A DNA stretch of 64,000 bases. It comes from Candidatus Binataceae bacterium (lineage in GTDB: Bacteria > Desulfobacterota > Binatia > Binatales > Binataceae). This document shows, in pieces, positions 28,146 to 44,988 of the stretch (position 1 is its first letter; each line of letters opens with the position of its first letter). The position numbers and the translations under genes are program-made. The stretch spans positions 178 through 64,177 of the forward strand of contig JBGPUE010000010.1 of assembly GCA_041491005.1 (NCBI GenBank). Direction: 5' to 3'. The notes beneath the pieces are model-generated. The model was not told the DNA's origin. It ran no database searches and saw nothing but the letters and a program-made list of their open reading frames with translations.

Positions 28146-30722
28146 GTGCCCACCGAAATCGCAGAAGCCCAACCGGATCCCGTGTCGATCGAGGCGTTAT
28201 TCGAGCGCTGTCAAGTCACCGAGGCGGGCCTCTCGAGCGAAGAGGCTTCCCGCCGCCTCGTGCGATACGGCCCGAACGAACCAGTTCCGCTCCGCCGTGG
28301 TACCGCGATCACTCAGTTCATCCGGTTTTGCAGCAATCCGCTGGTCCTGATTCTCCTATCGGCGTGTGCTATTTCGGCCCTGGTCGGCCAGAGAATCGAT
28401 GCCGCGATCATTGCCGCGATGGTGGCAATCAGCATCGCGCTGAATTTCGTCCAGGCGTACCGGTCAGAACGCGCAGTGCTCCGCCTCCGTGAGCAGGTCG
28501 CACCGAGCGCAACCGCTCTGCGCAACGGACGGTACGTTGAGGTGCCCCGCCGCGCGATCGTGCCGGGAGATATCGTGCGGCTTGCCGCCGGCGATCTGGT
28601 ACCCGCTGACGCGCAGCTCATTCAGAGCCGCGATCTTCACCTTCAGCAGGCGGCGCTGACCGGAGAATCGATGCCGGTCGAAAAGTTCGCCATCGGGAGT
28701 GAACCCGTGGCAGACAAGTCGGCGAGCCTGATCTTTCTTGGCAGTTCGGTCGTTAGCGGCAGTGGCACAGCAGTAGTCATCGCCACGGGATCGGCCACGG
28801 CCTTCGGCGGCATCGCGGCCCGGCTGGCGGTCCGGCCGCCTGAGACCGAGTTCGATCGCGGCACGCGACAGTTCGGTTTCCTGATCATGAGGACGGTCTC
28901 TTTCCTCATCCTGTTCATCCTGCTGGTCAACCTGAGCGCGCATCGCAACGCACTCGAATCACTCCTTTTCGCAGTCGCTCTGGCAGTCGGGCTGACCCCT
29001 GAGTTCCTGCCGATGATCACGACGGTGACGCTCTCGATGGGCGCGGTGAGGATGGCGCGCAAGAAGGTGATCGTAAAGCACCTCATCGCGATCGAAGACT
29101 TCGGCAGTATCGATGTGCTGTGCAGCGACAAGACTGGCACGCTTACTACCGGCACGATGTCACTCGATCGTTCGCTCGACCCCTTCGGTCAGCCGTCGGA
29201 TCGTGCTCTATCGCTCGCCTATCTCAATAGCCGCTTCGAAACGGGCATCAAGAGTCCGCTTGATGCCGCGATATTGGCGAATCCGCGCGACGATGCAGAG
29301 CCTTACCAGAAGCTCGACGAAATCCCGTTTGACTTCGAGCGTCGCCGTCTTTCGATCCTGGCCGGAAGGAACGGCGCCCGTCTCCTTGTTACCAAGGGAG
29401 CGCCTGAGAGCGTCATCGGTGTCAGTGCATATTTCGAAGCTGGCGGAACTACGCATCCGCTGGAGGAAGAGCCACGACGCCGATGCGAAAAGACTTTCCG
29501 GGAGCTCAGCGCGCAGGGCTTTCGCGTGCTCGCGGTGGCGTGTCGCCAGATCGAGGGCCGTGATCGACTGGCGACGGACGATGAGCACGATCTCATCCTC
29601 ACCGGATTCCTAACCTTCTTCGATCCTCCAGTCGGAGATGCGTCAGAATCGCTTGCGGCGCTGCGACGGGACGGAGTGCAGGTAAAGATTCTGACCGGTG
29701 ACAATGAGCTGGTCACAAGGCATGTCTGCGAGCAGGTCGGGATAAAGGCTGAGCGGATCGTGCTCGGAGACGAGGTCCAGGGCATGAGCGACTCGGCATT
29801 GGGTCACGTCGCCGAACAGGTGGACGTCTTCGCGCGTGTGTCGCCGGCTCAGAAAAATCGGATCATTCAGGCTCTCAGGCAGCGCAGCCACGTGGTCGGC
29901 TTCCTGGGTGACGGCATCAATGACGCGCCCTCTCTGCACACCGCCGATGTCGGGATCTCAGTGGCCGGAGCTGTCGATGTAGCCAAGGATGCTGCCGATA
30001 TCATTTTGCTGGAGCACAATCTTCAGGTGCTCCACAGCGGCATCATCGAGGGCCGCAAGGCCTTCGGCAATGTTCTGAAGTATTTGCTGATGGGGACCAG
30101 TTCGAATTTCGGCAACATGTTCAGCATGGCGGCTGCGTCGGTCTTTTTACCATTCCTTCCGATGCTGCCGACCCAGATCCTGCTGAACAATTTCCTCTAT
30201 GATCTTGCCCAGGTGACGATTCCCACCGACAATGTCGACCCGCTGTACATCCGCAAGCCTCAACGCTGGGACATCACGATAATCCGCAACTTTATGCTGG
30301 TGATTGGTCCGATCAGTTCTATCTACGACTTCCTGACCTTCTACGTCCTGTTGAAGGTCTTTCACTCTTCCGAGCAGCTGTTTCACACCGGTTGGTTCGT
30401 CGAGTCGCTCGCGACGCAGACTCTGGTGCTTTTCGTGATCCGAACGGCGGGCGTCCCCTGGAGCAGTCTGCCCAGCCGGCCGCTGGCGGCGACGACCGTG
30501 TTGGTCGTCGTGATCGGCGTGTTGCTGCCGTTCTCTCCGCTCGCGCAGGCTTTGGGGTTTGTGCCCCTCCCCGGCCGCTACTTTGTCTTCCTGACAGTAG
30601 CGACGCTGACCTACCTGTGTCTGGTCGAAGTCGCGAAGCGCTGGCTCATGGGGCGGCTGCTGGCCAAGCCGGACCGGCGCGTCGGCCATCGTGTGCGCCG
30701 ACACTCTGGAGCCGTCGCATGA
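28146..30722 (+). CDS. mgtA: Magnesium-translocating P-type ATPase
   Basis: 858-aa ORF (GTG start) with TGES, DKTGTLT, GDGINDAPSL, LTPEFLPMI and SSNFGNMFSMA, characteristic of the MgtA/MgtB subgroup. Confidence 0.9.
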   Translation: MPTEIAEAQPDPVSIEALFERCQVTEAGLSSEEASRRLVRYGPNEPVPLRRGTAITQFIRFCSNPLVLILLSACAISALVGQRIDAAIIAAMVAISIALNFVQAYRSERAVLRLREQVAPSATALRNGRYVEVPRRAIVPGDIVRLAAGDLVPADAQLIQSRDLHLQQAALTGESMPVEKFAIGSEPVADKSASLIFLGSSVVSGSGTAVVIATGSATAFGGIAARLAVRPPETEFDRGTRQFGFLIMRTVSFLILFILLVNLSAHRNALESLLFAVALAVGLTPEFLPMITTVTLSMGAVRMARKKVIVKHLIAIEDFGSIDVLCSDKTGTLTTGTMSLDRSLDPFGQPSDRALSLAYLNSRFETGIKSPLDAAILANPRDDAEPYQKLDEIPFDFERRRLSILAGRNGARLLVTKGAPESVIGVSAYFEAGGTTHPLEEEPRRRCEKTFRELSAQGFRVLAVACRQIEGRDRLATDDEHDLILTGFLTFFDPPVGDASESLAALRRDGVQVKILTGDNELVTRHVCEQVGIKAERIVLGDEVQGMSDSALGHVAEQVDVFARVSPAQKNRIIQALRQRSHVVGFLGDGINDAPSLHTADVGISVAGAVDVAKDAADIILLEHNLQVLHSGIIEGRKAFGNVLKYLLMGTSSNFGNMFSMAAASVFLPFLPMLPTQILLNNFLYDLAQVTIPTDNVDPLYIRKPQRWDITIIRNFMLVIGPISSIYDFLTFYVLLKVFHSSEQLFHTGWFVESLATQTLVLFVIRTAGVPWSSLPSRPLAATTVLVVVIGVLLPFSPLAQALGFVPLPGRYFVFLTVATLTYLCLVEVAKRWLMGRLLAKPDRRVGHRVRRHSGAVA

Positions 30723-32115: not shown

Positions 32116-33054
32116 CTACGCGTGGACGATTAGATCGGCGAGCGATCGATCGCTATGCAGGCGGTCGATTGCGTCCGCGAGCAGTGGTGCGAGGCTGACG
32201 CGCTGGACCGGGACAACCGCCGGGTCGGGCCCCCTCACGCTGTCGGTATAAAATAGTCGCTTTATGGGTAGTCCGCGCAGGCGCTCGATGGCCGGCCCGA
32301 CGAACAACCCATGGGTGCATACCACCGTGATCTGCGGATCGCATCCCGCCGCGAGCAGGGCGTTGATTGCCGCTTCGATCGTCCCCGCCGTCGTGATCAT
32401 GTCGTCGACGATCAGCGGCGCGAGTCCGCGCACGTCGCCCACCACGCCCCGCGCTTCGACCCGCTCTCCGCTCAGACGGCGCTTGTAGACCACCGCGGTC
32501 GGCGCGTGAAGAGTCCGGGCGTAGCGCTCAGCGAGCTTTACGCCGCCAAGGTCGGGGCTGACGATAACGGTTCGTGACCCGGCTACGGCGCTGATCGCGG
32601 GCACCAGAATCGGCAATGCAGCGAGATGCTCCAGCGGAACGGGAAAGAAACCCTCCAGCGACGTCATATGAAGGTCGACGGCGACGATCCGGCTGACGCC
32701 GACAGTCGCAATCAGATCCGCCGCGATTCGCGCACCGACCGGGCCGCGGCCCGTCGCCCGTCGATCCTGGCGCGCATACCCGAAGTACGGGATGATCGCC
32801 GTCATCCTTTCTGCGCCTGCCCGCCGGCAGGCATCGGCGAGGAAGATTAACTCGAGCAGATGTTCGTCGACGGGCGGCCCCGTAGGCTGCACAAGATAGA
32901 CATCCTGCCCACGCACACTCTGCTCGAGCTCGATGTTGAGCTCGCTGTCGGGAAACCGGCCCACGATGCGCCCCCCCAGCGGGACGCCGAGTCGGTCGGC
33001 GATTGACTCTGCAAGCGGGAGGTTGGCCGATCCGGCAAGGATAGTCAGGTTCAT
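32116..33054 (-). CDS. prs: Ribose-phosphate pyrophosphokinase
   Basis: MNLTILAGSANLPLAESIADRLGV N-terminus (Met at 33054; the listed ORF extends 16 codons further). Also IIPYFGYARQDR, DLH and the PRPP loop LIVDDMITTAGT. Confidence 0.9.
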   Translation of the reverse strand: MNLTILAGSANLPLAESIADRLGVPLGGRIVGRFPDSELNIELEQSVRGQDVYLVQPTGPPVDEHLLELIFLADACRRAGAERMTAIIPYFGYARQDRRATGRGPVGARIAADLIATVGVSRIVAVDLHMTSLEGFFPVPLEHLAALPILVPAISAVAGSRTVIVSPDLGGVKLAERYARTLHAPTAVVYKRRLSGERVEARGVVGDVRGLAPLIVDDMITTAGTIEAAINALLAAGCDPQITVVCTHGLFVGPAIERLRGLPIKRLFYTDSVRGPDPAVVPVQRVSLAPLLADAIDRLHSDRSLADLIVHA

Positions 33055-33191
33055 TGTGCTCTTCCTGCATTCCCGATTCTGCATCGAGAACGTGACGAGC
33101 AATGCTTGCCGCGCCGCGCGGTGACGCTGTCATCGAGCCTAGGCGAGCCAGTGCGGCTGGGCAACTGCACCTCCTCTATCTGAACCGCATG

Positions 33192-33980: not shown

Positions 33981-34093
33981 CTCGCTGCGCGCCTCCTGTC
34001 TGGGAGATGCAGGTCGCACGGCGTCCCTTTTACAACCGTCCACAGCCTGATTTCTCCGGTATCTCGAACGATTCCGGTGCGAGAAATCGCGTT

Positions 34094-34109
34094 TGCAAGG
34101 TTATCGCCG
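34094..34109 (-). promoter_or_regulatory. Candidate sigma-54 promoter ahead of pssA (weakest of the set)
   Basis: The minus strand reads CGGCGATAACCTTGCA, with GG and TTGCA at exact -24/-12 spacing. It lies immediately downstream of the hpf stop codon (2 nt away) and is 52-115 nt from the alternative pssA starts. Confidence 0.3.
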
Positions 34110-34110
34110 G

Positions 34111-34644
34111 CTAGTCAGCCAACGTGACGGTGCTGGCCTGCGGACCCTTCTCGCCCTCTTCTTCGGCGAAGCGGACATGACTGCCGACTTCGAGACGCTC
34201 GAAGCCGGGCGCCAGCACGCTGTTGCGATGGAAGTAGATCTCGCGACCGTCGGGCGTCTCGAGGAATCCGTAGCCGTCATCGCTGAAGAGCCTCGCGACG
34301 CGCGCCAAGGCCGGCCCTTCGTGGCTCTTAACCGCGCCGCGCACCTCGCGCACGTGGTCTTCAAGCCGCCGCCGGGCCGCGTCGAAGGCCTCGCGGATCG
34401 CCGTCATGAGTTCCTCGTCGGACTGATGGCTAATCGCGAGTTCGCCCCTCGGGACCTTCAGGTCGATTCGAATCTTGAACGGACCGCCCCGGCGGTGATG
34501 GCGCACCGGAGCTTCGACCGCGATGCGGCATCCGCTGATTTGGGGATCAAACTGTTCGAGCTTCGCAGCCCTGCGCCGAAGCTCAGCCTCTTCTGCCTCG
34601 GTCAACTGAAAGTTACGCGCTGTGATTTGAACCGGATATTCCAC
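34111..34644 (-). CDS. hpf: Ribosome hibernation factor (HPF/RaiA, S30AE fold) fused to a C-terminal cold-shock domain
   Basis: 177-aa ORF with a GTG start and GAGAGGA SD. The N-terminal ~105 aa are HPF/RaiA-like (VQITARNFQLTEAEEAELRRRAAKLEQF...FKIRIDLKVPRGELAI...EELMTAIREAFDAARRRLED). The C-terminal ~65 aa are CSD-like (ARLFSDDGYGFLETPDGREIYFHRNSVLAPGFERLEVGSHVRFAEEEGEKGPQASTV). Confidence 0.85.
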   Translation of the reverse strand: MEYPVQITARNFQLTEAEEAELRRRAAKLEQFDPQISGCRIAVEAPVRHHRRGGPFKIRIDLKVPRGELAISHQSDEELMTAIREAFDAARRRLEDHVREVRGAVKSHEGPALARVARLFSDDGYGFLETPDGREIYFHRNSVLAPGFERLEVGSHVRFAEEEGEKGPQASTVTLAD

Positions 34645-34670
34645 GTCGTTCCTCTCTTAGCCGAGCTTTC

Positions 34671-34686
34671 CGCAATCCCTGTGCCA
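34671..34686 (-). promoter_or_regulatory. Sigma-54 (-24/-12) promoter of hpf-CSD
   Basis: The minus strand reads TGGCACAGGGATTGCG, a full match to TGGCAC-N5-TTGCW. The -12 GC is 28 nt upstream of the GTG start. Confidence 0.6.
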
Positions 34687-34826
34687 CCAGTCACGAACGC
34701 CAGCTTGGCCGAATCGGCGGCCGTTGTGTCACCAAGAGAGACACGCGTGACCCCGTTGGGCGCAAACTTTGAAGTGACGGGCGTGGCGGTTGGCGGCCGA
34801 CCCTTCTGACGCACGATCGGCGTTCA

Positions 34827-34842
34827 CGGCGCACGTCTTGCA
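34827..34842 (+). promoter_or_regulatory. Candidate sigma-54 promoter of archease-rtcB
   Basis: CGGCGCACGTCTTGCA: GGC and TTGCA at exact consensus spacing, 37 nt upstream of the archease ATG. It is divergent from the hpf promoter. Confidence 0.45.
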
Positions 34843-34877
34843 AGTTGGCCTGATCGGGCTAGGCTCGTCACAGATCG

Positions 34878-35300
34878 ATGCCCAGCGACGAATTCTACCG
34901 TGAGATCGAGCACACCGGGGATGCGGGTGTCGAGCTCGTCGCCACGTCGCGCGCTGAACTGTTCCGCAGGGCCGCGATCGCGATCGCGCGGCTGATGGTG
35001 GCGCCCGAGGGCGTCCGCCCGATCGAGCGGCGCGAGGTGCGGGTCAGTGCAGTGAGCGATGCCGACCTGATGCACGACCTGCTCGCGGCGTTGCTCAACT
35101 TGTTCCTGGTTGAAGGGTTCATTTGGTGCGATGCGGTGGTGAATGAAGACGGCGATTCAGTGCGCGCGGACGTAGTCGGCGAACGCTATGATCCCGCGCG
35201 CCACGAGCTGCGCACCGAGATCAAAGCCGTGACCTACCATCAGCTGTCGGTCGAGCGCGTGGGAGATCGCTGGCAGGCGCAGGTGATTTTCGACATCTAG
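34878..35300 (+). CDS. Archease (RtcB activator)
   Basis: 140-aa ORF with the N-terminal YREIEHTGDAGVELVA (HT.D motif) and C-terminal IKAVTYHQLSVE typical of archease. It lies directly upstream of rtcB. Confidence 0.85.
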   Translation: MPSDEFYREIEHTGDAGVELVATSRAELFRRAAIAIARLMVAPEGVRPIERREVRVSAVSDADLMHDLLAALLNLFLVEGFIWCDAVVNEDGDSVRADVVGERYDPARHELRTEIKAVTYHQLSVERVGDRWQAQVIFDI

Positions 35301-35359
35301 GCTGCCCCGCGCGCAATCGTGCGAAGCGCGGCCGTCGAACGCGTCGGCGGTATCCGGTT

Positions 35360-36796
35360 ATGGAACTCCAGAAGATCAGCGACTTTCTATGGGAAATCCC
35401 GCGCCATGGAGCGATGCGCGTGCCGGGGCGGATTTACGCCAGCCAGCAGATGATCGACGAACTCCGCGATGATCCAGCGCTGACGCAGGTCGCGAACGTC
35501 GCGTGCCTGCCCGGCATCGTCGGCTACTCGCTCGCGATGCCCGATATCCATTGGGGCTACGGATTTCCGATTGGCGGTGTTGCCGCGACCGATGCCGACG
35601 AAGGAGTGATTTCACCCGGCGGTGTCGGCTACGACATCAACTGCGGCGTGCGGCTGATCAAGACCAACCTCGAGTACACGGCCATCGCGGACAAAGTTGA
35701 TCGTCTGGCTGACGCGCTCTTCGATGCTGTGCCCGCGGGCGTTGGCTCCAGCGGCGCGATTCCCGGCCTCGCGACCGACGAGCTCAAACGTCTGCTCGGC
35801 TCCGGCGCCGTATGGGCGATGAACCACGGCTACGCTTCGATGGATGATCTCGAGCACACCGAAGAGAGCGGCCGGCTCGAGATGGCTGACCCATCGGCCG
35901 TCAGCGAGATGGCGCTCAGGCGCGGGCGCATCCAGCTCGGCACACTCGGCTCGGGCAATCACTTCCTCGAATGCGACCGTGTCGATCAGATCTACGACCC
36001 CGACATCGCGCGCGCCTTCGGCCTCGAGCTCGGCCAAGTGACTGTGATTATCCATTCAGGCTCGCGCGGACTGGGCCATCAGATCTGCGACGACCATTTG
36101 CGCGTGATCGGCAAGGCGATGAGCGGTTACGGGATCACTCTACCCGACCGCCAACTCGCCTCGGTGCCGATCCGCTCGCCGGAGGGTCGTGCCTACCTGG
36201 GCGCGATGGCGGCGGCGGCCAACTTCGCCTGGTGCAACCGGCAGATCATGATGCATCTGGCCGAGCGCGCCTTCATGGAGACGCTGGGCACAGGGCCGCG
36301 CGAAGTCGGCTTCTCGTTGCTGTACGACGTTTGCCATAACATCGCCAAGTTCGAGCGCCATGTGGTGGGCGGTGTCGAACGGCGCGTATGTGTGCATCGC
36401 AAAGGTGCAACGCGCGCCTTCGGCCCAGGCCATCCGGCGCTGCCCATCGCCTTTCGAATGATCGGGCAGCCAGTGCTGATCCCCGGTGACATGGGCCGCT
36501 ATTCGTATGTGCTGGTGGGACGCGAACGTGCGATGGCCGAGACCTTCGGTTCGACCTGTCACGGCGCTGGGCGCTTAATGAGCCGCGCCGAAGCCAAGCG
36601 CCGGGCGCGCGGCCGCGACCTACTGGCGGAATTGCGGGAGGCCGGCGTGACGATCAGGTACCAAGGCCGTTCGACAGTCGCGGAGGAAATGCCGGCCGCT
36701 TACAAGGATGTCGCAGACGTGGTCGGAGTGATGGAAGCGGCTGGCGTCAGCAAGCGAGTGGCGCGGCTCAAACCCTTCGCCGTAATAAAGGGTTGA
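35360..36796 (+). CDS. rtcB: RNA 3'-phosphate ligase RtcB
   Basis: 478-aa ORF with MPDIHWGYGFPIGGVAA, GVGYDINCGVR, GSGNHFLE, HSGSRGLGHQ, HRKGATRA and CHGAGR. Confidence 0.95.
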   Translation: MELQKISDFLWEIPRHGAMRVPGRIYASQQMIDELRDDPALTQVANVACLPGIVGYSLAMPDIHWGYGFPIGGVAATDADEGVISPGGVGYDINCGVRLIKTNLEYTAIADKVDRLADALFDAVPAGVGSSGAIPGLATDELKRLLGSGAVWAMNHGYASMDDLEHTEESGRLEMADPSAVSEMALRRGRIQLGTLGSGNHFLECDRVDQIYDPDIARAFGLELGQVTVIIHSGSRGLGHQICDDHLRVIGKAMSGYGITLPDRQLASVPIRSPEGRAYLGAMAAAANFAWCNRQIMMHLAERAFMETLGTGPREVGFSLLYDVCHNIAKFERHVVGGVERRVCVHRKGATRAFGPGHPALPIAFRMIGQPVLIPGDMGRYSYVLVGRERAMAETFGSTCHGAGRLMSRAEAKRRARGRDLLAELREAGVTIRYQGRSTVAEEMPAAYKDVADVVGVMEAAGVSKRVARLKPFAVIKG

Positions 36797-37132
36797 TGCC
36801 GCGTCCATCGGCCTAGCCACCGCTATTGACGTTATTGAGTCCTACGAGTGTGTCAGGCGATGCGCCGAGCGCTCTGGATGCCGTAAGCGTCAGCCGCGTC
36901 GCCGCAGTGCGCGATTACGCGACGCGAATCTGCCTGATTGGCGCTGCTGCATCTAACGGAGTCATTGGTTCCCGGCTGACCCTCCTTACGAAAGCACCCA
37001 TCTCCGACATACTCTGTCTTTCGACATGGCGTTCCAATTCATAAGCAGCGATGGTGCGATTCGCTGGACTTAGACGCGAGCATCGGCGCATCCAGTTGAT
37101 TGTGCGGGGCTGAATACCTCCGCCTGTTTGTG

Positions 37133-37148
37133 CGGCAGGAGAATTGCT
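37133..37148 (+). promoter_or_regulatory. Candidate sigma-54 promoter of usp
   Basis: CGGCAGGAGAATTGCT: GGCA and TTGCT at exact -24/-12 spacing, 26 nt upstream of the ATG at 37173. Confidence 0.5.
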
Positions 37149-37172
37149 CAGGGCTCATGCAATAAGTCGGCG

Positions 37173-37583
37173 ATGAGACTGCTGTTCCGAAAGATTCTTT
37201 GTCCTATCGATTTCGACCGCATCGCGATCGGAGCAATCCAACTCGCGCGCGAGCTAGCCGGGCGAGACGGCGGCCTCGTCTACCTCTTGTGCGTCGTCCC
37301 CAAAGACCGGACTCGTCTGAAAGCCGACTTGGAGCAGGTCGCACACAACAGCTTGCGCGGGATTGGCCGCAAATGGTTCGAGGGAAAAGCGCCGTACGAG
37401 ATCCTCGTTCGCGCCGGCCGGCCAGCGCGGGCGGTGCTTGATGCGGCGGAGGAACTCGGCGTTGACGTCGTGGTGATGGCAACTCATGGGCGAACAGGAA
37501 CCAGGCGTGTGCGTCTGGGCAGCGTTACCGAGGAAGTGGTTCGGCAGTCGACACGACCGGTGGTGACAATCAGGCCAACGTAG
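37173..37583 (+). CDS. Universal stress protein (UspA family)
   Basis: MRLLFRKILCPIDFD... and the C-terminal VVVMATHGRTGTRRVRLGSVTEEVVRQSTRPVVTIRP (G-2x-G-9x-GS/T ATP-binding type). The listed ORF start at 37128 is probably an extension. Confidence 0.85.
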   Translation: MRLLFRKILCPIDFDRIAIGAIQLARELAGRDGGLVYLLCVVPKDRTRLKADLEQVAHNSLRGIGRKWFEGKAPYEILVRAGRPARAVLDAAEELGVDVVVMATHGRTGTRRVRLGSVTEEVVRQSTRPVVTIRPT

Positions 37584-37637
37584 GGCTTGGCCTGCTTCGT
37601 CGATCTTAACGCGCCAAATCGAGGAGGACATCGCACA

Positions 37638-37838
37638 ATGAGCAGATACAATTGGGACGAAATCAACCGCACGGTTGAGGACTTAACCAAGCGTTACAAC
37701 ATCGCAGCGGTCGACAGCGTGACCGTCGGTGGAAATAGCGATGGAGTCGAGTTGACGCTCACCTCGCTGACCCCCGAGCAAGCCGAGCAGATCTTCAGGC
37801 TCATCGGGCTCAAGCAAGTCGAGCTCACAGTGCTCTGA
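37638..37838 (+). CDS. Small hypothetical protein (66 aa)
   Basis: ATG at 37638 preceded by GAGGAGG at a good distance. The sequence MSRYNWDEINRTVEDLTKRYNIAAVDSVTVGGNSDGVELTLTSLTPEQAEQIFRLIGLKQVELTVL has no family I recognise. The coding call rests on the RBS and its position within the operon. Confidence 0.5.
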   Translation: MSRYNWDEINRTVEDLTKRYNIAAVDSVTVGGNSDGVELTLTSLTPEQAEQIFRLIGLKQVELTVL

Positions 37839-38109
37839 TCGCGCATCAAGCCGCCTCACTCTCTCGTTGACGGTCCGCAATGGTAGTCGTCGCGAAGAGC
37901 ACCCTTGTTCCGACGATACGGCGGAGTCGCGTAGATGCGGCGAGGCTGCTTCGTCCCCCGCTTCGATGCCGGGCCTCACGATGTTTGTGTGGAGCGATCC
38001 GGAGCGCGGCTGGCGCCTTTGGAAACACATCAGAGGGGGCTGGCTTACCGTGGTTCACTGTGGCCTACCCGGAAGCTGAGAATTCAGTGCAACGAATCCA
38101 GGAGTTCGA

Positions 38110-38125
38110 TGGCAAGTTTCTTGCG
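38110..38125 (+). promoter_or_regulatory. Candidate sigma-54 promoter of hsp20
   Basis: TGGCAAGTTTCTTGCG: TGGCA and TTGC at exact -24/-12 spacing, 47 nt upstream of the hsp20 ATG, which has a strong AAGGAGGAG SD. Confidence 0.55.
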
Positions 38126-38170
38126 ACACAGCATCATCGAACACCAACAATTTGAAAGGAGGAGAGATCA

Positions 38171-38623
38171 ATGGGAGCATTAACCCCATGGAGGCCGTTT
38201 CGCGAAATGGAGCGATGGGCGCGCAATCTGGAGGGCCGCTTTCCGCGAGTCTTTGAGGACTGGCCGTTTCGGGCCGAGGAAGCGGAGTTTCTGCCGCCGA
38301 TTGAGAGCTTCGTCCAGAACGGCAATATCGTCGTGCGCGCCGACGTTCCCGGACTGGAGGCCAAGGACATCGAGGTCAGCGTTTTGGGCAACGTGCTGAC
38401 GATCAAAGGCGAGCGCAGGGATCAGAAGGAAGTCAAGGCCGAGGATTACATCCGGCGCGAGATCTCCTACGGCTCCTTCGAGCGCAGGCTTACGCTGCCC
38501 GATGGCGCCGATGCCGACAAGGTCAAGGCGCAGTTCAAAAACGGGACGGTCGAGATCACGATGCCGATGGCCAAGGGCGCCAGCCCCAAGAAAGTGCTGG
38601 TGGAGAGCGCAGAGAAGAAGTAG
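38171..38623 (+). CDS. Hsp20 / alpha-crystallin family small heat-shock protein
   Basis: 150-aa ORF with an alpha-crystallin domain: PPIESFVQNGNIVVRADVPGLEAKDIEVSVLGNVLTIKGER...ISYGSFERRLTLP...KAQFKNGTVEITMP. Confidence 0.9.
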   Translation: MGALTPWRPFREMERWARNLEGRFPRVFEDWPFRAEEAEFLPPIESFVQNGNIVVRADVPGLEAKDIEVSVLGNVLTIKGERRDQKEVKAEDYIRREISYGSFERRLTLPDGADADKVKAQFKNGTVEITMPMAKGASPKKVLVESAEKK

Positions 38624-38734
38624 TCAATCGGTCACAGGGGCAGGCGGCTACCACGCATCGCAGTTGTGCCTGCCTCCCCCGCGGCACTGGATTGTCGCAG
38701 CTCACGCGGCCTGACGCGAAAGGAGGAGATTCAG

Positions 38735-39337
38735 ATGCCAGCCGGGTCGACGATCTTGAATACCAATCACGAGCGGGTCGAGAAGCTCCGAACAGTGCTA
38801 GTCAGCCAACGCGACCATGCGTGGGCAAGGGTGCGGGAGTTCCGTCACGACCAGGAAGGCGACGCGATTCCGCCGCCGGCGGATGAGATGGACCTGGCGC
38901 GTTCGACCGCCGACCTCGAGACTCATGCGAGCCTGATCGAACAAGCGGAAGACCGGCTCGCACAAATCGACGACGCGCTGGCGCGGCTCAACGAAGGCCG
39001 CTATGGGATCTGCGCAAAATGCGTCGAGGAGATCGCGGTCGAGCGTCTCAACACGCTGCCCTTCGTGCTGTACTGCGTCGATTGCCAGCGCGAACTCAAC
39101 CGTGCGCGCCGCCGCGGCGAGGGCAGCCTGTCGCGCAGTTTCGGCCGCCGCTGGGAGACGCCGCTGGAGATGGATGAATCGCTGGAGAGGACCGACGCGA
39201 TGAGCCAGCCCGAGGAAGAAACCACCATACGCGAAGGCCGGCCTTTCGGCCGCGAAGAGGGCACTCCAGACCACGGCCGGATGCCGCGTACGGGCAGGGG
39301 CTTGGTTCGGCGCGGACGGCCCAAGCGCAGTGCGTAG
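38735..39337 (+). CDS. DksA/TraR-family C4 zinc-finger protein with a long basic C-terminal extension
   Basis: ATG at 38735 after AAGGAGGA. It has a coiled-coil region with DEMDLA (DxxDxA tip motif) and the zinc finger CAKC-x17-CVDC. About 80 further residues are rich in Arg/Glu/Gly. Confidence 0.8.
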   Translation: MPAGSTILNTNHERVEKLRTVLVSQRDHAWARVREFRHDQEGDAIPPPADEMDLARSTADLETHASLIEQAEDRLAQIDDALARLNEGRYGICAKCVEEIAVERLNTLPFVLYCVDCQRELNRARRRGEGSLSRSFGRRWETPLEMDESLERTDAMSQPEEETTIREGRPFGREEGTPDHGRMPRTGRGLVRRGRPKRSA

Positions 39338-39355
39338 TCGCGCAGGGGATACCGG

Positions 39356-39802
39356 ATGAGCAAACTATTCAACCGGATTCTCTGCCCGATCGCGTTCGAG
39401 CACGAGTCGTTGAGCGCCCTCGATCTGGCCATAGCGATCGCGCAGCAGAACGACGCGACCCTCGTGCTGCTCAACGTCGCGCCGCTCCCAATCGGAGCCG
39501 GCGAATTCGCGCCGACGCTCGATCCGTATCCCGCGATCGAGCAAGTGGCGCGCGAACGGCTTGAGCGACTGGCCCACGATCGGCTTGAAGGCAAGGTCGC
39601 ATACAACACCCATGTCGTCGCGGGCGATCCGGCGACGCAGATCCTCCGTGCGATCGAGGCCTTCGCCGCCGATCTGGTCGTGATGGGGACGCATGGGCGC
39701 AAGGGCGTCAAACATCTGCTGTTGGGGAGCGTCGCGGAGAAGGTCGTGCGCGAGTCACCGCGGCCTGTGCTGACCGTGCGTCCCGCAGAGGAAGCGCGCT
39801 GA
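39356..39802 (+). CDS. Universal stress protein (UspA family)
   Basis: 148-aa ORF with NRILCPIAFEHES... and LVVMGTHGRKGVKHLLLGSVAEKVVRESPRPVLTVRP. Confidence 0.85.
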   Translation: MSKLFNRILCPIAFEHESLSALDLAIAIAQQNDATLVLLNVAPLPIGAGEFAPTLDPYPAIEQVARERLERLAHDRLEGKVAYNTHVVAGDPATQILRAIEAFAADLVVMGTHGRKGVKHLLLGSVAEKVVRESPRPVLTVRPAEEAR

Positions 39803-39828
39803 CGGCTTGATACGCGGGAGGCAGACAC

Positions 39829-40479
39829 TTGCAGATAACTACCGACTCAGTTGAACTTGAGGGCGACCTCGAGATGCCGGCGGGCGTTGCGCGGGGAATC
39901 GTGATCTTCGCGCATGGGAGCGGAAGCAGCAGGCTCAGCCCGCGTAACATGTACGTGGCTGCCCGTTTGCGTGCGGCCGGAGTCGCCACATTGCTTTTCG
40001 ACCTGCTCACCGAGGCCGAGGCGCTGGATCGCCAAAACGTCTTCGATATGGAGCTGCTCGCCCGCCGCTTGCGGGCCGCTACCGCATCGGTGCGCCGCCA
40101 TCGGCTCGCCGGGATACTACCGGTCGGCTATTTCGGCGCCAGTACCGGCGCTGCTGCTGCACTAATCGCCGCAACGCGCGATCCAGCGATCACCGCGATC
40201 GTGTCGCGCGGTGGGCGACCCGACCTCGCGGGAGATGCGCTCGCTCAGGTGAAGGCGCCGACGCTGCTCATCGTCGGCGGCGAAGACCGCGAAGTGCTGG
40301 AGTTGAATCGGCGCGCGCTCAGGCGCCTGAGCTGCGAGAAAGAACTCCGGGTAGTTCCGGGTGCGACGCATCTGTTCGAGGAGCCGGGAACGCTCGACGA
40401 GGTAGTGAAGCTCGCCAGCGATTGGTTCGTGCGCCATCTGCACGCTCACCCGGGCGAAAAGGAGACCCATGTTCACTAA
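39829..40479 (+). CDS. Dienelactone-hydrolase-like alpha/beta hydrolase
   Basis: 216-aa ORF (TTG start as listed) with GIVIFAHGSGSSRLSPRNMYVAARLRAAGVATLLFDLLT and the nucleophile elbow FGASTGAAAAL. Its 3' end overlaps the next gene by 11 nt. Confidence 0.8.
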   Translation: MQITTDSVELEGDLEMPAGVARGIVIFAHGSGSSRLSPRNMYVAARLRAAGVATLLFDLLTEAEALDRQNVFDMELLARRLRAATASVRRHRLAGILPVGYFGASTGAAAALIAATRDPAITAIVSRGGRPDLAGDALAQVKAPTLLIVGGEDREVLELNRRALRRLSCEKELRVVPGATHLFEEPGTLDEVVKLASDWFVRHLHAHPGEKETHVH

Positions 40480-41173
40480 TCGCCAGGATGCGGGACGCCG
40501 GCTCGCCAAGGCTCTCGCCCGCTACAAGGATGACCATCCCGTCGTGCTGGCACTGCCGCGCGGTGGAGTTCCGGTCGGTTTCGAGGTAGCCAAGGCGCTG
40601 AGCGCGCCGCTGGACATTATCGTCGTGCGCAAGCTGGGCGCTCCCGGACAACACGAGCTGGGGATCGGCGCGGTCGTCGACGGCGACCATCCGCAGACCG
40701 TGCTCAATGAGGAACTGCTGCGAAGGATCGATGTGCCCAAGAGTTACCTCGAAGCAGAGATCCTGCGCGAGCTTGAGGAGATCCACCGCCGCCAGCAGAC
40801 CTACCGCAAGGGGCATCCACCGGTCGATCCAGCCGGGCGGATTGTAATCGTCGTCGATGATGGGATCGCGACTGGCGCCTCGATACGCGCGGCGTTGCGC
40901 GGTCTGCGAAAGCTCGCTCCCCGCCGTCTGGTGCTCGCCGTGCCGGTCGCACCCGCCGAGACGATCGAGTCGCTCAGAGCCGAGGTCGACGAGGTGGTTT
41001 GTCTTGCGACCCCGCCCGATTTCTTCGCTATCGGACAGTACTATGACGATTTCAGGCAGACTTCTGACGCGCAGGTAGTCGAGCTGCTCGACAAGGCGCG
41101 CAATCGTGTGCTGGCGCCCTCGCCGCCAGCGGCACGCTCTCCATCAGAAGAGAGCAAAGCGCCCTCCTGCTAG
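40469..41173 (+). CDS. Phosphoribosyltransferase-domain protein
   Basis: 234-aa ORF with MFTNRQDAGRRLAKAL...VVLALPRGGVPVG and the PRPP-binding loop IVIVVDDGIATGAS. Confidence 0.85.
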   Translation: MFTNRQDAGRRLAKALARYKDDHPVVLALPRGGVPVGFEVAKALSAPLDIIVVRKLGAPGQHELGIGAVVDGDHPQTVLNEELLRRIDVPKSYLEAEILRELEEIHRRQQTYRKGHPPVDPAGRIVIVVDDGIATGASIRAALRGLRKLAPRRLVLAVPVAPAETIESLRAEVDEVVCLATPPDFFAIGQYYDDFRQTSDAQVVELLDKARNRVLAPSPPAARSPSEESKAPSC

Positions 41174-41235
41174 TCGAGTTGCGTATCGTCATTATTGTAG
41201 TTTCAGGCCGTCGCTCTATCTGTGATCCTTAGCTT

Positions 41236-42183
41236 GTGCGCTGGGAATCGCGGGCAAAGGCAGCCCTGGCACTAGCCCGATGGACTGGCGGGCTGGTCTT
41301 GTGCGTTCTGTTACTCGTCGCCGAAGCCGCCGCTGACGAACTACCGCCGCTTGGCACGGCGCTGGTTGGGGGCGAGTTCTCCTACGTCGTGCGGCGTAGC
41401 GACTCGCTGCGAAGCATCGGCTCGCGCTATGGCGTGGAGCCCACGGCGCTGGCGGCGGTCAACGGGTTTGCCGCCTCGGCGCGCCTGCGCGTCGGACGGA
41501 CGCTTCGGATCGACAACCGCCACGTCGTGCCGCGCGCAGTCGCACGCGGAATATTGATCAACATTCCTCAGCGCTACCTGTTCCTGTTCCGCGGCGGCAA
41601 AGCGGATGTTGCCTGCCCGGTGGGGCTCGGCAGGCCATCGTGGCGCACTGTCACCGGGAAGTTTACCGTCATCGGCAAACGGACCGATCCGGTATGGACC
41701 GTGCCGGAATCGATACAACGCGAGATGAAGCGCGAGGGCAAAGAAGTCCGCAGCTGCGTGCCGCCGGGCCCCGGCAACCCGTTGGGCAGTTACGCCCTCG
41801 ACTTGAGCATCGCCAGCTACCTGATTCACGGTACGATCGCGCCGTCGAGCATCTACGCATTCCAGACCCACGGATGTATCAGGCTCCATCCCGACGACAT
41901 CGCGGCGCTGTTTGGCCGCGTTGAAGTCGGCGAGCCGGGCGAGATCATTTACCAGCCCGTGTTGCTCGCGCGCCTGGACAACGGGCGCATTTTTCTGGAG
42001 GTCAACCGCGATATCTACCGCAAGGCGGGCGACGCGATGTTGCTGGTAAGGGCGTGGGCGGAGACCTCCGGTCTTGACGGCGAAATTGATTGGCGGCAGG
42101 CAACGGCTGTCATCGAACGAAGGGAGGGAGTGGCGCGCGAGGTCGATCGAGCGGGCGGGCGGCTGTCTTTGTGGCGACATTGA
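41236..42183 (+). CDS. LysM-domain L,D-transpeptidase (YkuD family)
   Basis: 315-aa ORF (GTG start) with an N-terminal hydrophobic signal/anchor, a LysM domain (YVVRRSDSLRSIGSRYGVEPTALAAVNG) and the YkuD catalytic region LIHGTIAPSSIYAFQTHGCIRLHPDD. Confidence 0.85.
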   Translation: MRWESRAKAALALARWTGGLVLCVLLLVAEAAADELPPLGTALVGGEFSYVVRRSDSLRSIGSRYGVEPTALAAVNGFAASARLRVGRTLRIDNRHVVPRAVARGILINIPQRYLFLFRGGKADVACPVGLGRPSWRTVTGKFTVIGKRTDPVWTVPESIQREMKREGKEVRSCVPPGPGNPLGSYALDLSIASYLIHGTIAPSSIYAFQTHGCIRLHPDDIAALFGRVEVGEPGEIIYQPVLLARLDNGRIFLEVNRDIYRKAGDAMLLVRAWAETSGLDGEIDWRQATAVIERREGVAREVDRAGGRLSLWRH

Positions 42184-42205
42184 TTGGCAACCCGTGGCGG
42201 CTATC

Positions 42206-42850
42206 ATGGATCGCATCGATGAGGTTCTTACGGGTCGGTCGATGAATCGCAAGAACAGGCCTCCATCCGAGCAGCGGGCCGCGGCTGAACTGAATGAGCC
42301 GCGCGTCATGCTGACCCGCCGCGGTTTCATGCGGGTCGCCACCGTAGCGGCCGCAACCGCGTTGATCCCGCATCGGGCGCTGGCCGGGCTGCGGCTGCCG
42401 GTCGCCCCGGCACGCTCTCTCGCGCTGCACAATCTCCATACCGGTGAATCGTTCCGTGCGGTCTACTGGACGGCGGGTGGCTACATCCGCGAAGCCGTGG
42501 AGAATATCAACTTCATTCTACGCGACTTTCGCACCGGCGAGATCAAGCCGATTAACCCGGGTTTGCTCGACCTGATGCACGCGATCGCGGGCCGCCTCGA
42601 TACCCGCGAACCCTTCCTCATCATCTCGGGCTACCGCTCGGCCGCGACCAATGCGATGCTGCGCGCGCACGGCGAAGGTGTGTCGCCGCGAAGCCTCCAT
42701 ATGAAGGGGATGGCCGCCGACATCCGCTTGCCGGGCCGGGAGCTCTCGGCGCTGCACAATGCGGCGCTCGCGCTGCACCGGGGCGGCGTCGGCTTCTATC
42801 CAAAGTCGGACTTCGTACATATCGACGTCGGCCGAGTGCGCTGGTGGTAG
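42206..42850 (+). CDS. DUF882 / peptidase M15A murein endopeptidase (MepK/YcbK-like), Tat-exported
   Basis: Twin-arginine signal TRRGFMRVATVAAATALIPHRALA, plus ISGYRS, SLHMKGMAADIRLPG and DFVHIDVGRVRWW. The start is ambiguous (Met at 42206, 42242 or 42308); the listed ORF start at 42074 overlaps the ldt gene. Confidence 0.8.
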   Translation: MDRIDEVLTGRSMNRKNRPPSEQRAAAELNEPRVMLTRRGFMRVATVAAATALIPHRALAGLRLPVAPARSLALHNLHTGESFRAVYWTAGGYIREAVENINFILRDFRTGEIKPINPGLLDLMHAIAGRLDTREPFLIISGYRSAATNAMLRAHGEGVSPRSLHMKGMAADIRLPGRELSALHNAALALHRGGVGFYPKSDFVHIDVGRVRWW

Positions 42851-42886
42851 GCCGGCCGGGTTCCGATCGCGTTCCTGGTTGCTCGC

Positions 42887-43384
42887 ATGTCGGCGGCGGC
42901 GAAAACATTCATGAAGCCTGACCGCAACTGGGATCGTACGGCGATTCTTGCGATTGCCTCGCGGCAAAGCGCAAAGCCGGGCGCGCTGATGCTGGTCCTG
43001 CGGGAGATTCAGGACCGCTTCGGTTTCATCCCTCCTGACTGCGTGCCGACAATCGCCCAGGCGCTCAACCTGTCGCGAGCAGAAGTCCACGGCGTCATCA
43101 GCTTCTACCATGACTTCCGCGCCAAGCCCGCAGGCAGACACCTCTTGCGCGTCTGCCGCGCGGAATCGTGCCAGGCGATGGGCGCAGTCGAGCTGCTCTC
43201 TCACATCAAGAAGCGCACGGGAATCGGCCTCGGCGAGACGAGCGAAGATGGCACGTTTACGCTCGAGCCCGTCTATTGTCTTGGCAACTGTGCCTGCTCG
43301 CCGGCAATCGTGATCGATGGCGAGCTTCATGGCCGCGTTACAGCCGACGCCTTCGATCATTTGATCGCGGGTCTCAGGGAATAG
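42887..43384 (+). CDS. fdsG: NAD-dependent formate dehydrogenase gamma subunit (NuoE-like 2Fe-2S)
   Basis: 165-aa ORF with the thioredoxin-like 2Fe-2S Cys pattern CRAESCQAMG...CLGNCACSP. Confidence 0.85.
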   Translation: MSAAAKTFMKPDRNWDRTAILAIASRQSAKPGALMLVLREIQDRFGFIPPDCVPTIAQALNLSRAEVHGVISFYHDFRAKPAGRHLLRVCRAESCQAMGAVELLSHIKKRTGIGLGETSEDGTFTLEPVYCLGNCACSPAIVIDGELHGRVTADAFDHLIAGLRE

Positions 43385-43386
43385 CA

Positions 43387-44988
43387 GTGGCGCTGTCCGT
43401 CTATGTCCCTTGTGATTCGGGCGCCCGCTCTTTGGGGGCGGACACGGTTGCACGCACTATCCGCGAGGAGGCATCACGCCGTGGCGTTGCGCTCGAAGTC
43501 GTGCGCACGGGCTCGCGCGGACTTTATTTTGCCGAACCCCTGGTCGAGGTCGCGACCGCGGCTGGCTGCGTCGCGTATGGGCCGGTATCGGCCGCTGACG
43601 TTGCATCGCTATTCGAAAGTGATTTCCTCGCGGGCGGCGAGCATCGTCTCCGGCTCGGCCTAGCCGACGATATCCCTTATCTCAGATCCCAACAGCGGCT
43701 CACGTTCGCACGCGCCGGAATTGTCGATCCGGCCTCTCTCGATGATTACTTGGCGCATGGCGGTTACAGCGCGCTCCGAATGGCTCTGGAAAGGACGCAG
43801 TCCGCCGTTATCGATGAGATTGCAGCGTCGGGGTTGAGGGGCCGCGGCGGCGCCGGATTCCCCACCGGCATCAAATGGCGAACCGTTCTCGAGACCGCTG
43901 CGGATACGAAATACGTTGTATGCAACGGCGACGAGGGCGACTCGGGCACTTTTTCGGATCGCATGATCATGGAGGGCGATCCGTTTGCGCTACTCGAAGG
44001 CATGACGATCGCGGCATTCGCCGTCGGCGCGACGCAGGGCTTCATCTATGTCCGCTCCGAATACCCGGATTCATATCGCCAGCTTGGCCAGACACTACAG
44101 ACCGCTCGCAAACACGGCTGCTTGGGCGACAAGATCCTTGGTTCGAGCCTGCGCTTCGACGTCGAACTCAGGCTCGGCGCCGGCGCTTACATCTGCGGCG
44201 AGGAGACCGCGATGCTCGAAAGCATTGAAGGCAAGCGCGGGATGGTGCGCGCAAAGCCGCCGGTGCCGGCAATCAGCGGGCTCTTCGCCAAGCCGACGGT
44301 GGTCAACAATGTCATCACGTTTGCGTCTGTCCCGGTTATCATTGCGAATGGAGCGCAGTCTTATCACCAGCGCGGCACGGGCCGCTCGCGGGGGACCTTG
44401 CCCTTTCAGCTCGCCGGCAACGTCAAGCGCCCGGGGTTGGTTGAACTGCCGTTCGGCGTCACCATCCGCGAACTCGTCTTCGACTACGGGGGTGGCACCG
44501 CAAGCGGCCGTCCAGTTGGAGCCGTGCAAGTCGGTGGCCCACTGGGTGCGTACTTCCCGCTCAAGATGTTCGACACGCCGCTGGATTACGAGGCGATGGA
44601 CGCGGCCGGGGGAATCCTCGGCCACGGTGGCATCGTAGTCTTCGACGACTCGGTAGATATGGCGCGAATGGCGCGATACGCGATGGAATTTTGTGCGCTG
44701 GAGTCATGCGGGAAGTGCACGCCATGCCGGATCGGCTCGGTGCGCGGGACGGAGGTGATCGATCGCATCGTGAACCGCCACAATCCGCGCGCGAACCTCG
44801 AGTTGCTGCGCGACCTCTGCGATACGATGATGCACGGCTCGCTGTGCGGTCTGGGCGGCCTCACTCCGCTTCCAGTGATGAGCGCGCTCAGATACTTTCC
44901 TGAGGACTTCGGCCTCGAGCCCGCTAACATCGAGGAAGTCTGGCCGAACCCCACACGACAGGCGGACGACGATGCTGTCAAAGGCTGA
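43387..44988 (+). CDS. fdsB: NAD-dependent formate dehydrogenase beta subunit (NuoF-like, FMN/NAD, 4Fe-4S)
   Basis: In-frame GTG at 43387, 2 nt after the fdsG stop, giving VALSVYVPCDSGARSLGAD. It has GRGGAGFPTG and ESCGKCTPCR. The listed ORF start at 43168 overlaps fdsG and is rejected. Confidence 0.9.
   Translation: MALSVYVPCDSGARSLGADTVARTIREEASRRGVALEVVRTGSRGLYFAEPLVEVATAAGCVAYGPVSAADVASLFESDFLAGGEHRLRLGLADDIPYLRSQQRLTFARAGIVDPASLDDYLAHGGYSALRMALERTQSAVIDEIAASGLRGRGGAGFPTGIKWRTVLETAADTKYVVCNGDEGDSGTFSDRMIMEGDPFALLEGMTIAAFAVGATQGFIYVRSEYPDSYRQLGQTLQTARKHGCLGDKILGSSLRFDVELRLGAGAYICGEETAMLESIEGKRGMVRAKPPVPAISGLFAKPTVVNNVITFASVPVIIANGAQSYHQRGTGRSRGTLPFQLAGNVKRPGLVELPFGVTIRELVFDYGGGTASGRPVGAVQVGGPLGAYFPLKMFDTPLDYEAMDAAGGILGHGGIVVFDDSVDMARMARYAMEFCALESCGKCTPCRIGSVRGTEVIDRIVNRHNPRANLELLRDLCDTMMHGSLCGLGGLTPLPVMSALRYFPEDFGLEPANIEEVWPNPTRQADDDAVKG

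Follow-up and report, generated by a model that had tools for sequence, protein, structure and literature searches.

The Hydrolase–Phosphoribosyltransferase Gene Pair

The window analyzed here, a 64,000-nucleotide (nt) stretch of contig JBGPUE010000010.1 from a Candidatus Binataceae bacterium (GCA_041491005.1), carries on its + strand two overlapping genes, one for a serine alpha/beta-hydrolase and one for a type I phosphoribosyltransferase (PRT). The first open reading frame, ORF1 (39829..40479; TTG start, 216 aa), belongs to the 2o2g (“dienelactone hydrolase-like”) family, and the second, ORF2 (40469..41173; ATG start, 234 aa), is a TT1426-type PRT. An earlier note on this DNA had described an 11-nt overlap of the two genes, and we recover it at 40469..40479 (+ strand), bounded by the ATG of ORF2 (40469-71) and the TAA of ORF1 (40477-79). 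ORF2 is read in the +1 frame relative to ORF1. Reading the sequence upstream of each start, we find a Shine-Dalgarno-like GGGAGG (39816..39821, +) 7 nt 5′ of the TTG of ORF1, and a Shine-Dalgarno AAGGAG (40459..40464, +) for ORF2 that is situated within the 3′-terminal part of ORF1 and precedes the ATG by 4 nt. This overlap anatomy would fit translational coupling of ORF1 and ORF2, as the note had supposed; a physical complex of the two products is something that we only infer.

Gene calls by the Joint Genome Institute (contig Ga0534150_0000107, 106 kb, of metagenome 3300053057) give identical coordinates for both frames, and the nearest named homologs of the pair come from Candidatus Binatia/Binataceae metagenome-assembled genomes (MAGs). 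ORF1 and ORF2 are real, intact genes and not chance reading frames of GC-rich sequence.

Protein Families and Active Sites

ORF1 matches PDB 2o2g over nearly its full length (residues 3-204; 4.1e-59), and its Pfam matches are to Hydrolase_4 (2e-08) and, weakly, DLH (4.7e-06; 26.8 bits). It shows what is expected of a 2o2g-type serine alpha/beta-hydrolase (i.e., full-length similarity, a GxSxG elbow, and a triad acid and His). The predicted catalytic triad is likely Ser105/Asp153/His181, because the spacing of these residues is comparable to that of ClcD-type enzymes. The name “dienelactone hydrolase” is not to be read literally, since the predicted nucleophile is a serine (Ser105, in GASTG) and not the cysteine of canonical dienelactone hydrolase (carboxymethylenebutenolidase, EC 3.1.1.45), and since carboxymethylenebutenolidase chains match ORF1 at 8e-04 to 1e-03 only. 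The 2o2g entry itself—“dienelactone hydrolase” YP_324580.1 of Anabaena variabilis—is a structural-genomics entry named by fold family, with no demonstrated activity; its structure superposes on the hydrolase domain of a fused homolog of the pair (see below) with a TM score of 0.94 and a root-mean-square deviation of 1.1 Å. Across 102 hydrolase sequences, conservation is at least 98% at H29-S33, R35, S37, R39, N40, G103-G107, S126-R130, D132, D153, and H181. The invariant motifs are HGSGSSRxSPRN, GASTG, and SRGGRPD, and four invariant arginines lie beside the oxyanion-hole and beta6 motifs.

ORF2 matches Pfam Pribosyltran (2e-17) and, with query residues 2-206 aligned to chain residues 3-202, PDB 1wd5 (phmmer, 4.2e-45), which is TT1426 of Thermus thermophilus, a predicted type I PRT. 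The similarity to this TT1426/1wd5-type (COG1926-like) group runs over the full length, inserted region and C-terminal hood included; beyond it, ORF2 has an extra, low-complexity C-terminal tail of ~25 residues that TT1426 lacks. The loop for binding phosphoribosyl pyrophosphate (PRPP), IVIVVDDGIATGAS, follows the pattern of a hydrophobic run, two acidic residues, and xxTGxS/T. Invariant in ORF2 and its relatives are this loop (VVDDGIATG), the PRGG loop, and Arg54-Lys55, and across 156 PRT sequences R31, G32, R54, K55, D130, D131, G132, A134, T135, and G136 are conserved at 98% or more. TT1426 shares the PRPP loop, and its Arg32 and Lys56, which have been proposed as pyrophosphate ligands, align with R31 and K55 of ORF2. 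Judged from these alignments, both predicted active sites of the pair are invariant and under strong constraint.

ORF2 scores below every NCBIfam equivalog cut-off for nucleobase PRTs and PyrR (uracil, hypoxanthine-guanine, orotate, and adenine PRTs among them), the best being PyrR with 26 bits vs. 138, and its nearest characterized relatives by sequence are likewise PyrR regulators (PDB 1ufr, 3.9e-05). Our literature search found no biochemical data for any TT1426/1wd5-type member. A role in anti-phage defense was considered and rejected: the match of ORF2 to the PRTase ShosT of the Shosta system (20.6 bits) covers the PRPP-loop region 85-160 only, and ORF1 has no PADLOC match.

Fused Forms of the Pair

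A search with the concatenated ORF1 and ORF2 sequences returned 8000 matches, and the best 120 of these are single proteins of 427-516 aa that are 58-63% identical to the concatenated query over 93-98% of its length. Several of them are annotated “predicted phosphoribosyltransferase/dienelactone hydrolase.” In these fusions, which come from Binataceae-type and other MAGs, the hydrolase precedes the PRT, as it does in the gene order of the window. They differ from the window pair in being one polypeptide (~440-455 aa, with a linker of ~10-25 residues), and they stem from a related lineage, the window pair being placed in a clade of split forms that is sister to theirs. The direct fused counterparts of the pair are thus these hydrolase–PRT proteins of its own lineage.

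Actinobacterial fusions have the reverse order, PRT–hydrolase, and measure ~443-450 aa; seeding a search with one of them, the 450-aa protein of Rhodococcus opacus plasmid pR1CP1, returned at least 120 such proteins from Rhodococcus, Nocardia, Amycolatopsis, Kribbella, and Mycobacterium, while a genome scan seeded with the Mycobacterium simiae protein P0318 gave 80 Mycobacterium loci that carry PRT–hydrolase homologs. Since fusions exist in both domain orders, fusion arose at least twice. The earlier note had suggested a gene-fusion (Rosetta-stone) census, and the fusion reading is supported by what was found: at least 120 hydrolase–PRT fusions at ~60% identity, together with abundant actinobacterial PRT–hydrolase fusions.

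The PRT family comprises 3436 clusters at 50% identity (E at most 1e-30), of which the best 150 hold ~115 standalone PRTs, ~13 PRT–hydrolase fusions, and ~7 hydrolase–PRT fusions. A Nocardia farcinica match (L002) is also a lone PRT of 206 aa; as its gene has no hydrolase gene in the vicinity, it could not stand in for Rv0571c. The PRT domain also occurs with other partners, and among representative proteins (P0368, P0370, P0378, P0476, P0500, P0440, P0480) it is fused to three BON domains, a CBS pair, the membrane domain DUF2238, PIN_3, a PRC barrel, a DksA/TraR zinc finger, or an erythromycin esterase, although some of these combinations may be gene-calling artefacts in metagenomes. A fold search of a fusion model against the PDB found no two-domain relative; apart from 2o2g and 1wd5, all matches are to generic esterases and lipases that share 14-20% identity.

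The Split in the Window Is Genuine

Removal of a single C from the ACCC run before the ATG of ORF2 (40465-40468) would join the two frames into one of 447 aa with a 9-10-aa linker, and fused homologs of ~60% identity exist in the same lineage; the reading of the split as a frameshift artefact was therefore examined. Strains from sister samples (L168, L169), at ~93% DNA identity, keep two genes in the same frame relation despite a different PRT start (GTG) and a different stop, and their overlap is 17 nt, which shows that the split is not such an artefact. Clustering at 90% identity likewise yields seven separate PRT proteins (234-253 aa) and nine separate hydrolase proteins (188-218 aa) from several contigs, with separate 216-218-aa and 234-aa proteins on several independent contigs among them. 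ORF2 has its own AAGGAG, and its start falls at the start position of standalone homologs. The nearest PRT relatives are themselves split (64-68% identity), whereas fused ones reach ~61%, and a rough neighbor-joining tree places the window PRT inside a clade of split forms that is sister to the clade of fused forms. Elsewhere, split pairs meet in various ways: the junctions among the nearest metagenome PRT homologs are ATGATG, TGATG, a 3-nt gap, and gaps of 12-15 nt, and the pairs of Ralstonia and Sphingobium are separated by 4 nt and overlap by 4 nt, respectively. The split of hydrolase and PRT is genuine.

Relationship to Rv0571c and Rv2030c

The earlier note had likened the pair to a split version of Rv0571c, a Mycobacterium tuberculosis protein of the DosR regulon, and had added that Rv2030c carries the same PRT half. 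M. tuberculosis was absent from our search returns, the nearest of the 80 Mycobacterium loci being those of M. gastri, M. innocens, and M. ostraviense, and the comparison with Rv0571c was made via its positional ortholog in M. gastri, as judged by synteny and by the published residues Pro252/Ala339. This 445-aa fusion (L012:6001-7338) is 60% identical to ORF1 over 206 aa (3e-74) and 47% identical to ORF2 over 214 aa (2e-57). Over the 80 loci, identities are 55-66% for ORF1 and 43-50% for ORF2, and both halves are present in 78.

The M. gastri fusion gene is flanked by alanine dehydrogenase, nicotinate phosphoribosyltransferase, CBS, and DUF2267 genes on one side and by archease, RtcB, ribosome hibernation factor (HPF), NrdZ-like ribonucleotide reductase, and DUF1918 genes on the other. 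This order corresponds to what we take to be that of H37Rv, Rv0574c / pncB2 ... Rv0571c / nrdZ / Rv0569. In M. tuberculosis, nrdZ (Rv0570) presumably adjoins Rv0571c and RtcB (Rv2631) lies elsewhere; in M. gastri (L012 447-13155), archease and RtcB separate the NrdZ-like gene from the fusion gene. Coordinates in PMC7753917 corroborate part of the H37Rv gene order, and the same paper reports the Rv0571c residues Pro252 and Ala339. These two residues align with P254 and A341 of the M. gastri protein, which places Ala339 in the GASTGA nucleophile elbow of the hydrolase, right after GAST. The length of Rv0571c, which we take to be 443 aa, would explain the two-residue offset.

As for Rv2030c, it is described as a PRT with an erythromycin esterase (PMC4410610), and a Rhodococcus qingshengii protein of the same architecture (681 aa, PRT N-terminal), encoded beside Hsp20 and universal stress protein (USP) genes, is 48% identical to ORF2. 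Rv2030c-type fusions and ORF2 thus share the PRT half that the note had pointed to, but ORF2 ends after the PRT and its short tail, without the Erythro_esteras domain that lies C-terminal to the PRT in L003 and L109. At L109 (7324-10007), an ORF1-like hydrolase gene is followed after 5 nt by a 676-aa PRT/erythromycin-esterase fusion of the Rv2030c type, so that all three domain types occur in one operon.

The likeness to Rv0571c holds for the homology of both halves, established via the positional ortholog, and for the invariant motifs, which the Rv0571c-type fusions of Mycobacteriales share; it does not hold for the arrangement, as the window encodes two polypeptides with the hydrolase gene first, whereas the Rv0571c type is a single chain that begins with the PRT and ends with the hydrolase. 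As to regulation, Rv0571c is among the targets of DevR, has two primary Dev boxes, and shows late induction in hypoxia (PMC3177182), and its function is “not yet characterized” according to reviews (PMC5309233); DosR/DevR-dependent induction by hypoxia was shown for Rv0571c, and we recognized no corresponding operator in positions 33900-41400 of the window. Within these bounds, the data support the view that ORF1 and ORF2 are the split halves of what other organisms, mycobacteria with their dormancy regulon among them, encode as one fusion protein.

Stress-Associated Neighborhood in the Window

A same-strand string of hsp20, dksA-like, usp, hydrolase, and PRT genes ends with ORF1 and ORF2. It comprises, on the + strand, Hsp20 (38171..38623), a DksA/TraR zinc-finger protein (starting at 38666 or 38735 and ending at 39337), and a second USP copy (39356..39802), all identified by Pfam and gene calls, followed by the pair. 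The gaps are short (18-110 nt), and for this reason the five genes are probably one operon. The DksA/TraR protein (38666-39337) has long extensions on either side of its zinc finger.

Further upstream, Pfam identifies archease (34878..35300), the RNA ligase RtcB (35360..36796), and a first USP copy (37128..37583), all on the + strand, and Pfam and gene calls identify on the − strand an HPF gene (Ribosomal_S30AE; 34111..34644) whose product carries a C-terminal cold-shock domain. Such a fusion of HPF and cold-shock domain is unusual; a + strand frame that overlaps it (34093-34809) has no Pfam match and is probably spurious. A PRPP synthetase (ribose-phosphate pyrophosphokinase) copy lies on the − strand at 32116..33102, away from typical housekeeping neighbors, and the + strand at 28146..30722 encodes a P-type cation ATPase comparable in type to CtpF of the DosR regulon. 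The USP/Hsp20/HPF/RtcB island at whose end the earlier note had placed the pair is therefore present in all its parts, with two USPs, Hsp20, HPF, and archease–RtcB all identified.

Between 33900 and 41400, a search for a shared operator, promoter, or terminator turned up a single promoter-like and a single terminator-like site, neither of which exceeds shuffle expectation, and the repeats in that segment are of chance quality only; the window yielded neither a regulator nor a shared operator. Directly 3′ of the pair (41236-47758, +) lie genes for a LysM-YkuD L,D-transpeptidase and an M15 peptidase and a set of NuoE/NuoF-like and molybdopterin oxidoreductase genes that resembles soluble formate dehydrogenase. 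The LysM-YkuD, M15, and oxidoreductase genes also stand 3′ of the pair in the sister strain L168.

Adjacency and Context in Other Genomes

Adjacency was surveyed at the 80 nearest PRT homologs in metagenome contigs, 54 of which were informative and the rest too short to judge. The hydrolase is directly adjacent to, or fused with, the PRT in 21 of the 54. Counted over all 80 loci, it lies immediately upstream on the same strand in 10, immediately downstream on the same strand in 4, and in fusion in 2, is convergent in 4 and divergent in 1, and is found 0.5-4.5 kb away in a further 8.

Where the two are linked, their company is often similar. In Ralstonia wenshanensis, the hydrolase gene precedes the PRT gene beside HPF, nitroreductase, CBS, and P-type ATPase genes, the last of these (48% identical to the ATPase of the window) abutting the split pair; in Cupriavidus, the PRT comes first and the neighbors are TraR/DksA, CBS, and BON; and the neighbors of the Sphingobium pair include CBS and PfkB genes, genes for a sensor and a response regulator, and a PRPP synthetase gene paired with a thymidine-phosphorylase-like gene. 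A PRPP synthetase recurs at several of these loci. That of Sphingobium (L170:11382-12266) forms an operon with the thymidine-phosphorylase-like gene, 2 kb from the split pair, and in R. opacus the PRPP synthetase gene (L004:9344-10276) overlaps the 3′ end of the PRT–hydrolase fusion gene. Among the 80 Mycobacterium loci, archease and RtcB come directly after the fusion gene, on one strand with it, in 20, sometimes with PRPP synthetase next; PRPP synthetase is within 6 kb in 21 and Hsp20 in 11.

The recurring context genes encode USP, Hsp20, HPF, archease–RtcB, P-type ATPase, CBS, DksA, and a second PRPP synthetase. With this stress context recurring in Mycobacterium, Rhodococcus, Ralstonia, Cupriavidus, and Sphingobium, the suggestion of the note that the module is tied to dormancy in unrelated phyla is supported. 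The DosR regulon (content from PMC3177182 and PMC5309233) and the window have a common repertoire of USPs, Hsp20, HPF, P-type ATPase, and CBS, and the hypoxia/stasis islands of different phyla have, in some genomes, an oxygen-independent ribonucleotide reductase nearby. The Burkholderia lxa locus is a similar island as a concept, but the lxa papers do not describe this PRT–hydrolase pair.

Three further observations concern individual loci. Plasmid pHG1 of Cupriavidus necator H16 (L167 7989-9332) carries a 447-aa PRT fusion, ~34% identical, near USP, hemerythrin, Rrf2, and anaerobic ribonucleotide reductase (NrdD/NrdG) genes. Among the 80 metagenome loci (e.g., L164:8790-10154, L149:7134-8279, L160:290-1447, and similar), a Memo–AMMECR1 fusion gene and a radical-SAM gene (the AmmeMemoRadiSam system) occur near standalone PRTs at ~6. 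Likewise, a PGA_cap gene (CapA-like, cf. Rv0574c) occurs near standalone PRTs at ~5 of these 80.

Proposed Function and Alternatives

We consider it moderately probable, and prefer it to the alternatives below, that the pair is the split form of a widespread bifunctional PRT/hydrolase family that includes Rv0571c, and that its products are made together as enzymes of a stress pathway. In a stress response of non-growing or hypoxic cells, the two proteins would be translated together and at approximately the same level. For its part, the PRT would bind PRPP via its PRGG loop, Arg54-Lys55, and DDGxATG loop and transfer phosphoribose to a base-like acceptor, with the PRPP synthetase of the island as the likely source of the donor. 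The hydrolase, through its putative Ser105/Asp153/His181 triad, would probably hydrolyze an ester, thioester, or lactone bond; its substrate would be anionic, likely phosphorylated, and part of the same pathway, and this step may either release the acceptor or process the PRT product. An anionic, possibly phosphorylated ester is suggested because of the four invariant arginines in the hydrolase. The fusions point to proximity and to consecutive action on one metabolite, for which a rigid complex would not be required.

Several observations weigh against this proposal. The hydrolase is missing from 25 of the 54 informative loci despite at least 700 nt on both sides of the PRT, and only 38 of 291 plasmid/chromid records with the PRT have both halves together; this hydrolase is therefore not a strict requirement for the PRT. 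The adjacency that the earlier note had expected to be conserved in other genomes thus recurs without being universal, and the link between hydrolase and PRT is strong but not obligatory. Neither family has a known substrate, 1wd5 and 2o2g both being structural-genomics entries, and the idea of a phosphorylated substrate draws on the sequence position of the arginines only. Fusions of the PRT with BON, CBS, PRC-barrel, PIN, DksA-type, and erythromycin-esterase domains fit a single two-step pathway poorly. Finally, AlphaFold2 models of both fusion orders (pLDDT 86 and 91, pTM 0.54 and 0.57; from shallow alignments of 60 and 82 rows) show confidently folded domains on a disordered linker and predict no fixed geometry between the domains.

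Some of the same observations lend themselves to a different reading, in which the PRT is mainly a sensor of a ligand (PRPP, a nucleotide, or (p)ppGpp) that gates or recruits its fused or coupled partner in the manner of PyrR. That the PRT is fused to many domains and has PyrR as its nearest characterized relative, by PDB match and as best NCBIfam match, means that it could be a sensor that controls its partners; several of those partners (the BON repeats, CBS pair, PRC barrel, and DksA/TraR zinc finger) are non-enzymatic stress-island domains, a DksA-like gene stands in the same presumed operon and also beside the pair in Cupriavidus, and the AlphaFold2 models lack a predicted fixed catalytic interface. 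Yet the full PRPP motif and the pyrophosphate-binding Arg/Lys are invariant, which fits catalysis too, and PyrR itself keeps uracil phosphoribosyltransferase activity; the co-operonic, dedicated PRPP synthetase genes suggest substrate supply more than sensing, and the odder PRT fusions may in part be the metagenome artefacts mentioned above. We regard a predominantly sensory PRT as rather unlikely, though it is the strongest of the alternatives.

More doubtful is that the two genes are merely co-expressed in a stress island, with independent functions and neither interaction nor common pathway, their overlap reflecting compact packing. Short overlaps are common in compact operons, adjacency fails at roughly every second informative locus and in the majority of plasmid records, and at 5 of the 80 metagenome loci the hydrolase gene runs opposite to the PRT gene, in convergent or divergent orientation. 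Independent fusions in both domain orders, in separate clades, argue the other way, as does the recurrence of adjacency in Binatia-type MAGs, Alpha- and Betaproteobacteria, and Actinobacteria, which is far above expectation for unrelated genes.

A more speculative proposal, to which we give a similarly small chance, is that the pair has nothing to do with nucleobase salvage and instead serves RNA or ribosome maintenance in dormancy, together with archease–RtcB and HPF, or acts as a stasis-switching sensor. In its first version, a PRPP-dependent modification and an ester hydrolysis would take place on an RNA end or a nucleotide-linked substrate; in its second, a PRPP- or (p)ppGpp-sensing PRT domain would switch partner modules on at entry into or exit from stasis. 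The proposal is prompted by the one-strand arrangement of fusion, archease, and RtcB (with or without PRPP synthetase) in a quarter of the Mycobacterium loci and the same neighbors in the distant window, and by the fusion of the PRT to DksA-, CBS-, PIN-, and PRC-type domains.

Lastly, that the split is an artefact or a recent pseudogenizing frameshift of a fused hydrolase–PRT gene is extremely improbable and was rejected on the sister strains, the 90%-identity clusters, and the neighbor-joining tree.

Significance

Database annotations and the DosR literature already reveal the family, its fusions, and its association with dormancy, and the window pair is an ordinary representative of a known, uncharacterized family. 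Our literature search found no paper that analyzes the PRT–hydrolase module or its chemistry, none that mentions COG1926, and none with a relevant combination of PRT, dienelactone hydrolase, USP, and RtcB. The DosR-regulon genes of M. tuberculosis that lack an assigned function include Rv0571c and Rv2030c, a problem that the present comparison narrows and does not solve. Useful by-products are the linkages to PRPP synthetase and archease–RtcB and the evidence for fusion in two orders.

What emerges is that the PRT and the serine hydrolase are an evolutionarily linked pair, fused at least twice in opposite orders and tightly split elsewhere, with a dedicated PRPP synthetase repeatedly co-located. 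Genes for archease–RtcB, HPF, Hsp20, USP, and P-type ATPase accompany the module in Actinobacteria, in Proteobacteria, and in organisms of the Binatia type. Split versions such as that of the window may be easier to express as separate domains, and the linkage and the constrained sites together give concrete biochemical tests for the family.

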